From a virus (taxonomy: Duplodnaviria > Heunggongvirae > Uroviricota > Caudoviricetes), in the IMG/VR virus record IMGVR_UViG_2645727991_000017: a stretch of 10,514 nt of DNA; one strand, written 5' to 3'. A program made the translations under genes and the position numbers. The first letter of the stretch is position 1; every line of letters starts with the position of its first letter. This document shows positions 4,641-10,038 of the stretch, piece after piece. The notes beneath the pieces are model-generated. The model was not told the origin of the DNA and made no database searches. It saw only the letters and a list, made by a program, of their open reading frames with translations.

Positions 4641-4717
4641 GCGCCCTTAGCTCAGTTGGATAGAGCAACGACCTTCTAAGTCGTGGGCCGCAGGTTCGAA
4701 TCCTGCAGGGCGCGCCA
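4641..4717 (+). tRNA. argU: tRNA-Arg (anticodon UCU)
   Basis: 77-nt cloverleaf: acceptor stem GCGCCCU/AGGGCGC, D-arm GCUCAGUUGGAUAGAGC, anticodon stem ACGAC/GUCGU with loop CU-UCU-AA, T-arm GCAGGUUCGAAUCCUGC, 3' GCCA. Matches E. coli argU as recalled. Confidence 0.95.
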
Positions 4718-4732
4718 TTACAATTCAATCAG

Positions 4733-5896
4733 TTACGCCTTCTTTATATCCTCCATAATTCCAGAGTGGGACATATTTGGGACATTATCACCAAAAATGT
4801 CGTCTATTTTCCTCGCATGCTCTGTCAAATGATTAGGCGCAAGGTGAGCATACCTACGAACCATTTCTATGGACTCCCATCCGCCCATTTCCTGAAGCAC
4901 TGATAATGGGACGCCTGACTGAATCAGCCAGCTTGCCCAGGTGTGTCTGAGGTCATGGAAACGGAAATCTTCAATTCCTGCACGACGACAAGCTGATAGC
5001 CATGATGTCTTGCTGTCGATGCGCATCTTCCTGACCGCAGGCGTTGATGTTCCATCTGCTCGCTTAGCCGCCTTGGTATGTACAAACACCCATTTGTGAT
5101 GCTTGCCTATTTGATCACGCAACACTTTACAGGCGGTATCGTTCAGCGCCACACCAATGGCGCGGTTTGATTTGCTCTCTTCTGGATTCACCCAGGCAAC
5201 TCGTCGCTGCATGTCGATTTGTTGCCATTCCAGATTTATGATGTTCGACTTTCTCAGACCAGTTGCCAGCGCAAACTTGACGACAGATTTCAGTGGTTCG
5301 GGGCACTCATCAATAAGGCGTTTTGCTTCCTCCTTTTCCAGCCATCTGACTCGCTTGTTTCTGACCGCTGGTATCTTGATGACAGGCGCTTTTTCCAGCC
5401 ACTTCCAGTCGCGTTCTGCAGCACGGAGAATAGCCTTTATCATGGCAAGATGCTTTGCCTTTGTCTGAGTTGATACTGGCTTTGGTTCATAAACAGGCAG
5501 TTCTTTACCTTTCCTGATGGCGGCCTGAACTTTCTGTTTCCATATTTCTTTCGTCTTTCTGTTATGCATTCTGCTTACAGCAGAGTAAATCTTTGCCTCC
5601 GAGATATCTTTAAGCCTTATACCCTCAAAATGTTCAAGCCAGAACTCAATCCGGCTTTTATCTGAATCGAGAGATTTTTTATCAGCTTTTTCCTCAAGCC
5701 ATCTTAGGCAGGCCTCTTCAAAAGTGACATCAGGTAAATCCCCTAGCTTTTCTACTCGCCAGAGTTCTGCTTTTCGCTTGTCGTGCAACTCCTGAGCTTG
5801 CCGCTTGTCCTTTGTGCCAAGAGATTCCTTAATTCGTTTCCCGCCCGGGAGCGAATACGAGGCATACCATATTTCATTTCTGCGGAAGAGTGACAT
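4733..5896 (-). CDS. intD: Tyrosine site-specific integrase (DLP12 IntD-like, 387 aa)
   Basis: Translation [55 protein letters not shown]... with C-terminal catalytic region ...[42 protein letters not shown] (R...HxxR...Y); matches DLP12 IntD as recalled; SD AGAGGAAAG upstream of the ATG at 5896. Confidence 0.95.
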
Positions 5897-6123
5897 TTTC
5901 TTTCCTCTGTTATGCCATCACCCGCGCTCACCTGGACAGTATGCAGCGGAGACTGAAGCGCCGCAATGCAGGCTTGCCGTGTTGTGAGGTAAGGAGATTT
6001 TGGCTTGGTTGGATCTTTACGTGTTGCCTGTAGGCGGCCTGTTCGTATCCAGTTGGTGGCGGTTGGTCTGGATATCTTAAGAAACTGACAGGCCTCATCG
6101 AGTGTGAGGCTGTATGATTCCAT
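5752..6123 (-). CDS. xis: Excisionase-family DNA-binding protein (HTH), about 123 aa, with a long C-terminal extension overlapping int
   Basis: ATG at 6123 with SD AGAGGT 5 nt upstream; N-terminus [31 protein letters not shown] matches the excisionase/AlpA-type HTH pattern; directly upstream of int. The 3' 145 nt overlap the int start in another frame. Confidence 0.6.
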
Positions 6124-6373
6124 GGTTACCTCTGCTTTTTGAACGCATGTCACGTAACTTCTTAATGTGTTCTGCCGTTTCGATCTCTTCTGCTATCCGA
6201 TCTGCATCAGCTTTATTCACAGGTTCAAAGTCATGATTAAAGCGGAACATGCTGGCGATACATGTTCTGCCTTTTCGGATGTAGTGAACTTTGTTGTGGG
6301 TAGAACGCAGGATTTTGCAGGGAGTGCCGTGGTGGTCGACGTACCAGGTGTTAGGGTAAATCACTCTGAACAT
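6095..6373 (-). CDS. Hypothetical phage protein (92 aa)
   Basis: ORF with ATG at 6373; its start overlaps the end of the upstream ASCH gene and its end overlaps the xis start (coupled arrangement). No family recognised from sequence. Confidence 0.45.
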   Translation of the reverse strand: MFRVIYPNTWYVDHHGTPCKILRSTHNKVHYIRKGRTCIASMFRFNHDFEPVNKADADRIAEEIETAEHIKKLRDMRSKSRGNHGIIQPHTR

Positions 6374-6683
6374 TCTTGACCTTGTGTTGTGCGGATTGAT
6401 ATTCAGTGCTGATATTCACCTTTATAGCGAACACCTTTACCGGTTTATCGCCAAAGTGTGGATGTGTGATTGTCTTCACTTCATATCCGTCATACGGAAC
6501 ATCAATTCTGCGACTGGAATCGTCGCGCTTCGGATATCCCTTTGTGATAATCAGGCGGTCATACTCCCGGAACATAATTCGCTTATTCCAATAGTCATTA
6601 CACAGGCGATACTCCTCCGTTTTCTCTCCGCGAATCATGGCATCGAAAAATTCACTTTTAACAGGAAGTTGCAGGTTAGCCAT
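6351..6683 (-). CDS. ASCH-domain (PUA-like) protein, about 110 aa
   Basis: N-terminus MANLQLPVKSEFFDAMIRGEKTEEYRL carries the GxKxxExR signature typical of ASCH domains; ATG at 6683 with SD GGGGGA about 7 nt upstream (the track ORF starts one codon earlier at a GTG); start overlaps the stop of the TraR-like gene (TGATG). Confidence 0.55.
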   Translation of the reverse strand: MANLQLPVKSEFFDAMIRGEKTEEYRLCNDYWNKRIMFREYDRLIITKGYPKRDDSSRRIDVPYDGYEVKTITHPHFGDKPVKVFAIKVNISTEYQSAQHKVKNVQSDLP

Positions 6684-6904
6684 CACTTAATCCCCCTTTG
6701 TTTGCGGATAAGCTCCAGATCTTGCTGGCAACTGGCGCAAGTTCGACAACCCTGAACGGCTAGGCGTCTTCGTTCATCTATCGGATCACCACACTCACAA
6801 CAATGAGTGGCAGATACAGCCAGGTGGTTCAGGCGGCGCATTTTTATTGCTGTGTTGCGCTGTAATTCTTCTATTTCTGATGCTGAATCAATGATGTCTG
6901 CCAT
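6683..6904 (-). CDS. TraR/DksA-family C4 zinc-finger protein (73 aa)
   Basis: Translation contains CECGDPIDERRRLAVQGCRTCASC (CxxC-17-CxxC), the size and motif of phage and conjugative TraR/DksA-like proteins. Confidence 0.7.
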   Translation of the reverse strand: MADIIDSASEIEELQRNTAIKMRRLNHLAVSATHCCECGDPIDERRRLAVQGCRTCASCQQDLELIRKQRGIK

Positions 6905-6956
6905 CTTCCATTAATCCCTGAATTGTTGGTTAATACGCTTGAGGGTGAATGCGAAC

Positions 6957-6983
6957 AATAAAAAAGGAGCCTGTAGCTCCCTG
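6957..6983 (-). terminator. Rho-independent terminator (minus-strand sense) immediately downstream of the DGQHR gene
   Basis: Minus-strand sequence GGAGC-TACAG-GCTCC (extendable to AGGGAGC/GCTCCTT) followed by TTTTTTATT; + strand 6966-6980 stem-loop with A6 run at 6960-6965. Confidence 0.55.
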
Positions 6984-7057
6984 AGGATTTTGCTTTTCAT
7001 GTTCACCGTTCCTTAAAGGCGCCGTACAGCATGCTGATATGAGACAATGTTGATTCA

Positions 7058-8122
7058 TTAAGTTGATTCCAGACTTCCTTTGGTAAATGCTTGTATCAGT
7101 CTGTTTGCTGCTGCTTTCTGCGCTGCCACATTGGCAATAACAGATAGTTTTTCCTGGCTGGCTTTCGTGCAGATCCCCGCCCAGTTATCCATCAGAAAAA
7201 AATCCTCTCTTTCTGCAGAGCTGGTAGTTGCACATAGTTTTTCGATCATAGAAGTTATTTCTGCGATGGAATGATTAACCATCATCTGTTGAACCGCAAA
7301 ACCGAAAGCGTTAATCATTACTCCATGGAACTGAATATAATCGCGCTTGTACGTAGCGTGGTGTACACCATGTCGGATTGAGTCAATCTGAGTTAGTGTA
7401 ATCCATGCCTCCCAGACAGATTCTATATATCCCATTTCAAGTTGTTGATTGCCGTTCCTGGCGAACTTTGACGTTGCATCAGTGAGTGCCTTGAAACTCA
7501 CCCACATATTACTTTTTAATGGCACTACGTTGTGTTCAAAATCGGTTATATCGGCAAATACAGTATGTTGGGTCAGGAAGGATATCATTCCCTGAGCAAT
7601 ATCATCCCGGCCGTTATACGCCATATTGATGGTCGCTGATGGCTTAGAAACGTTGTTATTTATGTCCGAAAAGAACTGCTGCCGGGTTTTTAGCGGCAGA
7701 TTCATTGTAAGCATCATGGGAACCATGAGCGTTGATGGGGAACTTCGGCAAAATATCTCAATGCCAGCTGCACGATGTTGACCATCAAAAAGTTTTATTT
7801 CGGCGTCGAGGGGAATTCTGGCTATACCAACATTTGTGTTGCCAAACGGTACAAATTCTATATTCGAATCACAGTTACCTACGAGAGGGGGAATGATAAA
7901 AGGCTCATTTCTTGAGTCTGCGTTAGTGAGATAATTTAAAAATTTTCGTACTCGATTTGGATTAATTTCTCGCTGAGAGCGTTCCAGTGTATGGCCGTAA
8001 TTATCTGAAGCGAGGAAACGAGCCAGCGATCTTCCTGGTATGGTAAGGAAGAGTGTAACAGTACCACCCTGTACACCTTGCGATGCCGGAAATTCGAATG
8101 AATGATTACCAACCTGACTCAT
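7058..8122 (-). CDS. DGQHR-domain protein, DndB-like (ParB/Srx superfamily), 354 aa; solitary, no dnd/dpd partners in the window
   Basis: Exact DGQHR motif in context AEIKLFDGQHRAAGIEIF; upstream segment ERSQREINPNRVRKFLNYL resembles the QRxL..RV..I..Y segment of DndB/DGQHR proteins as recalled; N-terminal FEFPASQGVQGG; perfect SD AGGAGG 4 nt before the ATG at 8122; terminator downstream. Confidence 0.65.
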   Translation of the reverse strand: MSQVGNHSFEFPASQGVQGGTVTLFLTIPGRSLARFLASDNYGHTLERSQREINPNRVRKFLNYLTNADSRNEPFIIPPLVGNCDSNIEFVPFGNTNVGIARIPLDAEIKLFDGQHRAAGIEIFCRSSPSTLMVPMMLTMNLPLKTRQQFFSDINNNVSKPSATINMAYNGRDDIAQGMISFLTQHTVFADITDFEHNVVPLKSNMWVSFKALTDATSKFARNGNQQLEMGYIESVWEAWITLTQIDSIRHGVHHATYKRDYIQFHGVMINAFGFAVQQMMVNHSIAEITSMIEKLCATTSSAEREDFFLMDNWAGICTKASQEKLSVIANVAAQKAAANRLIQAFTKGSLEST

Positions 8123-8273
8123 ATATCCTCCTGTTTATTATTTATCTTCTCAGCCAGCCGCTGTGCTTTCAGTGGATTTCTGATAACAGAAAGGCCGGGA
8201 AATACCCAGCCTCGCTTTGTAATGGAGTAGACGAAAGTGATCGCGCCTACCCGGATATTATCGTGAGGATGCG

Positions 8274-8954
8274 TCATCGCCATTGCTCCCCAAATACAAA
8301 ACCAATTTCAGCCAGTGCCTCGTCCATTTTTTCGATGAACTCCGGCACCATCTCGTCAAAACTCGCCATGTACTTTTCATTCCGCTCAATCACGACATAA
8401 TGCAGGCCTTCACGCTTCATGCGCGGGTCATAGTTGGCAAAGTACCAGGCATCTTTTCGCGTCACCCACATGCTGTACTGCACCTGGGCCATGTAAGCCG
8501 ATTTTATTGCCTCGAAACCACCGAGCCGGAATTTCATGAAATCCCGGGAGGTAAACGGGCATTTCAGTTCAAGGCCGTTGCCGTCACTGCATAAACCATC
8601 GGGAGAGCAGGCGGTGCGCATACTTTCGTCGCGATAGATGATCGGGGATTCAGTAATATTCACGCCGGAAGTGAATTCAAACAGGGTTCTGGCGTCGTTC
8701 TCGTACTGTTTTCCCCAGGCCAGCGCCTTAGCATTAACTTCCGGAGCCACACCGGTGCAAACCTCAGCCAGCAGGGTGTGGAAGTAGGACATTTTCATGT
8801 CAGGCCACTTCTTTCCTGAGCGGGGCTTTGCTATCACGTTGTGAACTTCTGAAGCGGTGATGACGCCGAGCCGTAATTTGTGCCATGCATCATCCCCCTG
8901 TTCGACAGCTCTCACGTCGATCCCGGTACGCTGCAGGATAATGTCCGGTATCAT
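8274..8954 (-). CDS. exo: Lambda-type 5'-3' exonuclease (Red alpha), 226 aa
   Basis: Translation [65 protein letters not shown]...GEQWR is near-identical to lambda Exo as recalled; start overlaps the bet stop (ATGA). Confidence 0.95.
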
Positions 8955-9736
8955 GCTGCCACCTTCTGCTCAGTGGCTTTCTGTTTCAGGAATCCAAGAG
9001 CTTTCACTGCTTCGGCCTGTGTCAGTTCTGACGATGCGCGAATGTCGCGGCGAAATATCTGGGAACAGAGCGGCAATAAGTCGTCATCCCATGTTTTATC
9101 CAGGGCGATCAGCAGAGTGTTAATCTCCTGCATGGTTTCATCGTTAACCGGAGTGATGTCGCGTTCTGGCTGACGTTCTGCAGTGTATGCAGTATTTTCG
9201 ACAATGCGCTCGGCTTCATCCTTGTCATAGATACCAGCAAATCCGAAGGCCAGACGGGCACACTGAATCATGGCTTTATGCCGTAACATCCGTTTGGGAT
9301 GCGACTGCCACGGCCCCGTGATTTCTCTGCCTTCGCGGGTTTTGAATGGTTCGCGGCGGCATTCATCCATCCATTCGGTAACGCAGATCGGATGATTACG
9401 GTCCTTGCGGTAAATCCGGCATGTACAGGATTCATTGTCCTGCTCAAAGTCCATGCCATCAAACTGCTGGTTTTCATTGATGATGCGGGACCAGCCATCA
9501 ACGCCCACCACCGGAACAATGCCGTTCTGCTTATCAGGGAAGGCGTAAATTTCTTTCGTCCACGGATTAAGGCCGTACTGGTTGGCGACGATCAACAATG
9601 CGATGAACTGCGCATCGCTGGCATCACCTTTAAATGCCGTCTGGCGAAGAGTGGTGATCAGTTCCTGTGGGTCGACAGAATCCATGCCGACACGTTCAGC
9701 CAGCTTCCCTGCCAGCGTTGCGAGTGCTGTACTCAT
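8951..9736 (-). CDS. bet: Lambda-type single-strand annealing protein Bet (Red beta), 261 aa
   Basis: Translation [66 protein letters not shown]... matches lambda Bet as recalled; same length. Confidence 0.95.
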
Positions 9737-9741
9737 CCGTT

Positions 9742-10038
9742 TTATACCTCTGAATCAATATCAACCTGGTGGCGGGCAATAGTTTCAACCATGTACCGGA
9801 TGTGTTCTGCCATGCGTTCCTGAAACTCAACATCGTCATCAAACGCACGGGTAATGGCTTTTTTGCTGGCCCCGCAGCGTTGCAAATGATCGATGCATAG
9901 CGATTCAAACAGGTGCTGGGGCAGGCCTTTTTCCATGTCGTCTGCCAGTTCTGCCTCTTTCTCTTCACGGGCGATCTGCTGGTAGTGACACGCCCAGCTC
10001 TGAGCCTCAAGACGATCCTGAATGTAATAAGCGTTCAT
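9742..10038 (-). CDS. gam: Gam (RecBCD inhibitor), 98-aa short form
   Basis: Translation [98 protein letters not shown] is near-identical to lambda GamS as recalled; an in-frame stop 18 codons upstream (10093-10095) and no upstream ATG exclude a GamL-type extension. Confidence 0.9.

Follow-up and report, generated by a model that had tools for sequence, protein, structure and literature searches.

A solitary DGQHR-domain gene in the early operon of an argU lambdoid prophage represents a mobile-element branch of the DndB superfamily and may encode an establishment factor

Introduction

To our knowledge, DndB-type proteins have otherwise been met only as partners of phosphorothioation genes. 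Here we describe the setting, relatives and possible function of a gene of this type that stands by itself in a lambdoid prophage. It occupies positions 7058–8122, minus strand, of a 10,514-nucleotide stretch of DNA (hereafter the window) from IMG/VR virus record IMGVR_UViG_2645727991_000017, assigned to the Caudoviricetes, and encodes a protein of 354 residues. An earlier note, made from the sequence without database searches, described the protein as DndB-like and the gene as a horizontally acquired moron of the prophage early-left operon, and offered a role in defence, anti-defence or recognition of modified DNA as a hypothesis.

Our analysis places the protein in a distinct DndB-type branch outside the phosphorothioation context, carried as cargo by temperate phages and by conjugative plasmids of clinical importance (IncN-like plasmids and the IncL/M group with its pOXA-48 type), and always within the first-expressed part of the element. 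On arrival in a new cell, a phage expresses its pL operon, and a plasmid its leading region, before any other DNA. The clade and its shared first-expressed location are what is new; the RefSeq name of the protein, 'DGQHR domain-containing protein', and its PHROGs family of unknown function were already known. A literature search (DGQHR; DndB-like or phage-encoded DndB) found no study that characterizes the clade or notes the location common to phages and plasmids, and a study of leading regions (PMC11541004) lists one small DGQHR family in a supplementary table but does not comment on it.

Results

The gene lies in a tightly packed early operon

Starting in a fimbrial operon, the window passes fimZ and tRNA-Arg(UCU) (4641–4717; the sole match in an Rfam scan of the window) and then enters a lambdoid prophage, of the argU site. 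All prophage genes in the window are on the minus strand, coordinate order being the reverse of transcription order. In the direction of transcription they are gam (9742–10038; Pfam Gam), bet (8951–9736; Pfam RecT), exo (8274–8954; Pfam YqaJ), a DUF1317 gene of the lambda orf60a type (8119–8283; PF07026, E=4.4e-31), the solitary DGQHR-domain coding sequence, a TraR/DksA-type zinc-finger gene (6683–6904; PF01258, E=6.8e-09; phrog_54), a phrog_625 gene (6351–6686), a DUF4222 gene (6095–6373) and the integrase gene (4733–5896). The earlier note had set the gene between exo and the TraR-like gene; the latter is indeed downstream, but exo does not adjoin, as the DUF1317 open reading frame (ORF) intervenes.

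From gam to the DGQHR gene, the five genes abut or overlap one another. The DGQHR ATG (8122–8120) overlaps the TGA of DUF1317 as ATGA, which suggests translational coupling of the two genes, and an AGGAGG Shine–Dalgarno sequence (8127–8132, minus strand) sits within the 3′ end of DUF1317, separated from the ATG by 4 nt. Downstream, a pattern scan and RNA folding located an intrinsic-terminator-like hairpin with a GGGAGCC/GGCUCCU stem and a U run (6955–6982, minus strand); the hairpin itself (6964–6982, followed by the T run) begins ~76 nt past the DGQHR stop. A second terminator-like hairpin (8191–8213, minus strand; 9 pairs, 6 of them G-C) stands within the DUF1317 coding region, ~70 nt upstream of the DGQHR start. 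No promoter-like site was found upstream of the gene on the minus strand by a simple consensus scan, and an inverted-repeat search around the gene for operator-like repeats gave one 10-nt pair, within the coding sequence, and nothing else.

The gene is an exchangeable cassette

The argU prophage of Escherichia coli PK8241 carries an alternative to the gene. In BLASTN alignment, this prophage is 99.8% identical to the window up to 7025, and homology resumes at 8127 (97.6%), leaving an exchangeable cassette of 1101 bp (7026–8126). The place of the cassette is taken in PK8241 by 465 bp coding for a DUF1382 protein (orf63-like, 63 residues) and a 71-residue ORF, and this alternative DUF1382 segment is present in 180 sequenced lambda- and Stx-type phages. 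The slot is thus of the dispensable lambda type, as had been supposed.

Because homology with PK8241 runs to 7025 and again from 8127, the Shine–Dalgarno sequence and the terminator fall outside the cassette, in the shared backbone, and the gene is therefore an exchangeable early-operon gene rather than a self-contained moron. Both signals had been credited to the gene itself in the earlier note: they exist, but in sequence that prophages without the gene also possess, and the terminator does not follow the stop directly. The low GC content reported there was likewise found, at 43.0% (39% at third codon positions) against 52% in exo and bet (57–62% at third positions), but it is not unique to the gene; since the backbone genes downstream (TraR-like, phrog_625, DUF4222 and integrase) are equally at 43.5–48%, composition marks the gene only weakly as foreign. 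Among the usual marks of a moron, presence/absence polymorphism and atypical composition were found, and a promoter and terminator of its own were not. In view of the lack of a detectable promoter, the coupling into the gam-bet-exo-orf60a string, and the backbone origin of the Shine–Dalgarno sequence and terminator, we class the gene as an early pL-operon gene and not as an independently expressed lysogen gene.

Among 5426 complete E. coli genomes, 284 carry the gene at ≥99% identity, always annotated 'DGQHR domain-containing protein', and 3272 carry the alternative cassette. The figure of 284 is inflated by clonal sampling, as many carriers share a 99.2% allele at similar map positions in genomes of 4.6–4.9 Mb. 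An identical protein is encoded in lambdoid prophages at no fewer than four attachment sites (argU, as in the window; icd; beside proA; and beside lacY/lacI), with a constant gam-bet-exo-DUF1317-DGQHR-TraR block at every one. Sequence comparison identifies a minority cassette, horizontally shuffled, in the dispensable exo-xis slot; it is the word moron that falls, as no promoter was found and the Shine–Dalgarno sequence and terminator are not the gene's own. A megablast search of sequenced phages gave no near-identical copy, the relatives there being recognizable at the protein level only.

The distribution of dnd genes was compared with that of the cassette. dndC is present in 207 of the 5426 genomes, so that, with 284 carriers, at least 77 carriers are without it; among the matches listed, the 68 dndC-positive and 77 carrier records have no accession in common. 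The gene is solitary at the locus level, and nothing in these counts suggests that it is linked to dnd across genomes.

Two database records of the cassette deserve mention. PLSDB entry CP099174.1 has a 100% identical gene (831794–832855) beside DUF1317 in a 1.31-Mb E. coli 'plasmid', which looks like a stretch of chromosome wrongly filed as a plasmid. A 5474-bp contig labelled 'MAG: Bacillota bacterium' (L006 in our numbering of loci; JAEWTL010000063.1) carries bet-exo-DUF1317-DGQHR-TraR-DUF4222 at 87–100% identity to E. coli prophage genes, with a 73% identical integrase, and is probably mis-binned enterobacterial DNA.

The protein is neither DndB nor DpdB

In translation the protein contains KLFDGQHRAAGIE and QREINPNRVRKFLNYL, that is, the exact DGQHR motif and the DndB-like segment recognized in the earlier note, and their significance is far beyond chance: the NCBIfam DGQHR domain model TIGR03187 is matched over all of its positions (1–276 of 276) at 188.8 bits (E=1.5e-55; curated cutoff 58.85 bits). 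Pfam DndB (PF14072) is also matched, at 158.2 bits (E=3.8e-46; gathering threshold 29.1 bits), as is the PADLOC DndB component model (126 bits). The best PHROGs match, phrog_7901 (716 bits), is labelled as of unknown function. The equivalog model for DndB itself, TIGR03233, gives 106.9 bits, well below its curated cutoff of 328 bits, which two positive controls exceed: E. coli DndB from a dndBCDE-dptFGH island (462.4 bits) and Halobacteriovorax DndB (497.2 bits), the latter followed by a DndC-like gene. The DpdB model NF041060 (cutoff 300) gave no match even at E≤1. As the protein clears the cutoff for DGQHR but not that for the DndB equivalog, which true DndBs clear, and the DpdB model is unmatched, we classify it as a DGQHR-domain member of the DndB superfamily that is neither DndB nor DpdB. 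The likeness to DndB thus stands as membership of the DGQHR/DndB superfamily with a ParB/Srx-type N-terminal fold, and not as identity with DndB proper.

A scan of the window's ORF list with Pfam found no dnd or dpd gene, including no dpdA or TGT-like gene, in agreement with the earlier note. PADLOC-DB recognizes no complete defence system in the window: the DndB component is matched alone, and DndCDE and DndFGH are absent. Within the protein, no nuclease or other effector domain was matched by NCBIfam, Pfam or PADLOC models, and no Pfam match to ParB_N or HTH_ParB was obtained. A profile search of 1.84 billion cluster representatives returned 832 clusters at E≤1e-3 and 81 at E≤1e-30; as 832 among 1.84 billion is few, the superfamily visible to the profile is a small one.

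The protein shares with DndB (the dndBCDE repressor of Salmonella enterica and E. coli) its domain family, its length and some 290 alignable residues; with E. coli DndB the alignment covers 292 residues at 23% identity (E=8e-26). R48, Q50, R51 and R57 are invariant across the mobile-element relatives and DndB, and the DGQHR motif is unchanged throughout 39 family members and true DndB. Of the first group, Q50, R51 and R57 fall in the conserved motif Q50-R-E-I-N-P-N-R-V-R-K-F61 (codons at 7940–7975, minus strand), upstream of D113-G-Q-H-R117 (7772–7786, minus strand), which forms part of a GxxRxxA-like phosphate-binding motif of the ParB/Srx fold, G114-Q-H-R117-A-A-G, likewise invariant. A third conserved motif, F-[SA]-D-[IL]-N, falls in F150-F-S-D-I-N-N-N-V-S-K-P161 (7640–7675, minus strand); the block is invariant in the family alignment, and F151, D153, N155 and P161 are common to the phage protein and DndB. 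Unlike DndB, the phage protein falls below the equivalog cutoff, has a C-terminal region of ~70 residues of its own, carries Ile in place of Cys29, has no adjoining dndCDE either here or in close relatives, and is carried on phages and plasmids.

DpdB, the ATPase partner of DpdA in 7-deazaguanine DNA modification, differs also in its motif, which is DGQQR in the Salmonella Montevideo protein (PMC10164549) and DGQHR in the phage protein. The name given by NF041060 to DpdB, 'DGQHR domain-containing protein', is inconsistent with that published motif. We also noticed, in the dnd island of E. coli NADC 6564 (L028, 8108–9268), a second DGQHR-type gene between dndE and dptH, split into two coding sequences annotated 'DGQHR domain-containing protein' and 'DndB'; a second paralogue is thus possible even in true dnd islands.

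A sequence search of the PDB found no relative of the phage protein. An AlphaFold2 (AF2) model built from 39 homologues (mean pLDDT 81, pTM 0.65) gave nothing significant in Foldseek against the PDB; its matches in BFVD are DndB-like and GmrSD-N proteins, and the published top match for DpdB is PadC (PMC10164549). The modelled N-terminal domain superposes on ParB-like or sulfiredoxin structures, and the protein has an N-terminal nucleotide-binding domain of the ParB/Srx fold followed by a helical domain. By analogy with DndB-like proteins and DpdB (PMC12704722, PMC10164549), we infer that nucleoside triphosphate (NTP) would be bound and hydrolysed through the GxxRxxA-like motif.

Relatives occupy early operons of phages and leading regions of plasmids

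Homologues at 55–73% identity are common in Enterobacterales. Those of Salmonella phages SPN1S and SPC32H (65% identity) come directly after DUF1317, an adjacency seen also in loci L007 and L009; Klebsiella phage homologues are 62% and Vibrio phage homologues ~32% identical. Throughout 22 genome loci and the temperate phages, the gene is on the early-left side, between cI or the recombination genes and the integrase. Clustering of all neighbours at 27 loci revealed no conserved partner gene. No dndC, dndD or dndE was found beside relatives of ≥29% identity, and only a 25%-identical Halobacteriovorax locus (L027) adjoins a DndC-like PAPS-reductase gene.

On plasmids, PLSDB holds homologues at 37–43% identity in 1071 entries, of which 885 are conjugative. 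Sampled IncN-like plasmids (MOBF/MPF_T) have the order mucAB, a hypothetical gene, DGQHR, ardB and ardR, and further on ccgD and ccgC, while the gene in sampled IncL/M plasmids is part of a same-strand array with a JAB/RadC-like gene, Hha, DUF1380, an antirestriction protein and ssb. Loci from Buttiauxella, Dryocola and Pseudescherichia (L018–L021, L023) have psiA immediately downstream, and a Serratia contig (L025) has ssb-parA-korB after the DGQHR gene. Placement in leading regions is judged here by neighbour genes. The relatives are accordingly found in phage early operons or plasmid leading regions, co-oriented with anti-restriction, single-stranded-DNA-binding protein (SSB) or Psi genes.

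Identities within the phage and plasmid group range from 33 to 74%, and fall to 22–30% against DndB, two remote DndBs sharing 48% with each other. All tested members of the group pass the DGQHR model and fail the DndB cutoff. On both sequence measures, then, the mobile-element proteins form a clade distinct from DndB.

In one group of PLSDB hits (H226–H241; plasmids of 63.5–69.1 kb, mostly 63,589 bp) the plasmid-clade gene is in two pieces, split by insertion sequence IS1 wherever the record is annotated. By size, these entries would belong to the pOXA-48-type IncL plasmids.

Discussion

The reading that we favour is that the protein is an NTP-gated DNA-binding dimer of ParB/Srx fold, made upon entry or induction, which aids establishment of its element, most likely by counter-defence; we hold it with belief and doubt in about equal measure. 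The gene product would belong to the mobile-element-specific branch of the DGQHR/DndB family and, to judge from its place in the operon, would be made within minutes of DNA entry or prophage induction. It would bind DNA as a dimer, gated by NTP binding and hydrolysis in the manner of DndB, DpdB and ParB-type switches, and would help the incoming element to establish, the likeliest route being to blunt a host DNA-targeting defence or the DNA-damage response; re-programming of host transcription would be a less likely one. The biochemical steps are modelled on DndB, a dimeric DNA-binding repressor (PMC4507180), on a DndB-like protein that binds ATP and GTP (PMC12704722) and on DpdB, a DNA-stimulated ATPase dimer (PMC10164549), and the setting is that of plasmid leading regions, where anti-defence genes, orphan methylases and SSBs are overrepresented (PMC11541004). 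It is the neighbourhoods with ardB, ardR, psiA and ssb that lead us to place counter-defence first. Relatives near ardB/ardR, an antirestriction gene, ssb and psiA also narrow the defence, anti-defence or modified-DNA hypothesis of the earlier note toward a role in entry or establishment and away from lysogen-protective defence. The comparisons above also speak against a DndB orthologue and against a defence moron expressed in the lysogen.

Several points weigh against this reading. The immediate neighbours vary among relatives (MT-A70 methylase, dATP/dGTP pyrophosphohydrolase, HNH, RdgC, exonuclease, PsiA, ArdB), so guilt by association is a weak argument. Genes that have no part in defence are also present in early-left operons and in leading regions. 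The search for a promoter was a consensus scan only, and its outcome is compatible with expression in the lysogen. Because the gene is split by IS1 in the pOXA-48-type lineage and that lineage is very successful, it must be dispensable for spread there. Finally, we found no paper with experimental data on the mobile-element DGQHR clade, and PHROG 7901 is annotated as of unknown function.

After counter-defence we rank, in descending order, host reprogramming of the HerB kind, assistance to a methylase, and then lysogen-protective defence and functions directed at dnd. An NTP-gated ParB-superfamily protein might load on the host chromosome after entry and rewire transcription, as HerB/YfjB of F-like plasmids does, or might tune the choice between lysis and lysogeny like the exo-xis genes that the cassette displaces; we think this unlikely, though it is the strongest of the competitors. 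HerB/YfjB (bioRxiv 2026, PMC13370423), a ParB-like CTP switch that is encoded in the leading region and binds the host chromosome, shares with the phage protein the first-entering location and the fold superfamily, and would be its best functional analogue; DndB is itself a transcriptional repressor (PMC4507180). The displaced DUF1382 (orf63-like) gene and its neighbour belong to the same slot (from the orf60a side to the TraR-like gene) and the same early pL unit of lambda and Stx phages, where exo-xis genes of ~60–70 residues modulate lysogenization and induction (PMC3824215, PMC6213356), although they bear no sequence relationship to the phage protein. HerB, however, has 652 residues, comprising a canonical ParB N-terminal domain, an HTH and two novel added domains, and binds CTP, whereas the phage protein is of the DGQHR branch, is not a canonical ParB and matches neither ParB_N nor HTH_ParB. 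Moreover, binding sites or a regulon cannot be inferred from sequence, and the plasmid neighbours are mainly anti-restriction and SOS genes. A somewhat less probable idea is that the protein is an ATPase that readies DNA for a methyltransferase, as DpdB does for DpdA (PMC10164549), so that the DNA of the element is modified soon after entry. A DNA methyltransferase gene comes directly next, with a 4-bp overlap, in Salmonella phage SPN1S and in two further loci (L016, L013), and is one gene away in L009; a C5-methylase gene follows a 539-residue homologue in Vibrio phage (Va_PF430-3_p42), and fusions of ParB-fold and methylase domains are common in prophages (PMC12704722). But no methylase adjoins the gene in the window, in any examined copy from E. 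coli prophages or on the IncN-like plasmids, the adjacency is confined to ~5 of ~25 loci, and such regions often contain orphan methylases anyway.

That the gene is a true moron, excluding other phages from the lysogen by, for example, a ParB/Srx-type nuclease or NTPase, appears improbable to us. The match to the PADLOC DndB model, the GC content below that of exo and bet and the minority status of the cassette would all suit such a role, and the superfamily includes the defence effectors SspE, DndI and GmrSD/BrxU (PMC11662687). In these DUF262/GmrSD-type proteins (SspE, DndI, BrxU), though, which serve the host as effectors of defence, DGQQR is combined with an HNH/DUF1524 nuclease at the C-terminus (PMC11662687), whereas model scans assign no nuclease or other effector domain to the phage protein. 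Translational coupling within a repressed pL operon, the failure to find a promoter of the gene's own, the backbone nature of its Shine–Dalgarno sequence and terminator, and the leading-region location of the plasmid relatives all tell against expression in the lysogen, and the variable slot that related prophages seem to express in lysogeny lies elsewhere, beside cI. Least credible of all, in our estimation, is a function directed at phosphorothioation, with the protein, as a phage-borne DndB, repressing or subverting the dnd operon of the host, or else sensing phosphorothioate-modified DNA. Homology with DndB over ~290 residues and the presence of dnd islands in E. coli (the 207 dndC genomes above) lend it some plausibility, but the equivalog model is failed, identity to E. 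coli DndB is only 23%, Cys29 of DndB (PMC4507180) is replaced, and the E. coli counts point the other way, both in the carriers devoid of dndC and in the lack of accessions common to the listed records; repressing modification would also be of no obvious use to a phage facing DndFGH. DndI, a DUF262 protein of the DGQQR-HNH type, and the anti-Dnd protein JSS1_004, a kinase of the T7 gp0.7 type, are both unrelated to the phage protein.

The proposal of an NTP-gated establishment factor can be widened from this phage to the whole clade. Phage and plasmid DGQHR proteins might constitute a family of establishment factors not recognized before, DndB-like DNA clamps gated by NTP and made in the first minutes, that neutralize DNA-targeting immunity such as modification-dependent or modification-sensing systems, and so provide a widespread anti-defence function shared by lambdoid phages and the IncN and IncL/M resistance plasmids; this we put forward tentatively, as possible but doubtful. 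If an anti-defence or host-takeover role were correct, the counter-defence repertoire would gain a new class of protein, a mechanistic link would join phage early operons to plasmid leading regions, and there would be a handle on how resistance plasmids establish themselves in new hosts; if there is no such role, the gene is one more exchangeable exo-xis gene of unknown function. We regard it as a worthwhile experimental lead, and the degree of surprise as moderate rather than exceptional.

Additional observations on the window and related prophages

Prophages with the gam-to-TraR block have a hypervariable slot between cI and kilR (L001, 23745–25393; L029–L038, ~6400–7330), which holds ImmA/IrrE with DUF4411, DUF7946/DUF7947, ASCH, or ORFs of no assigned family. 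This cI-adjacent slot looks like the actual hotspot for lysogeny-expressed cargo. In L038, a GmrSD gene lies just beyond the icd prophage.

A 42-residue ORF (6930–7058, minus strand), whose ATG overlaps the DGQHR stop as TAATG, is unlikely to be a gene, as neither Pfam nor PHROG gives a match and it crosses both the cassette junction and the terminator hairpin. The phrog_625 protein of 111 residues, which has no Pfam match, is kept in argU prophages with and without the DGQHR cassette, and bears, as judged by eye alone, a resemblance to ASCH/PUA-like domains. On the host side of the tRNA, the fimbrial usher ORF (83–2218) is intact in the window, and in PK8241 the usher upstream of argU is broken by IS1A (L002, 3333–6719).

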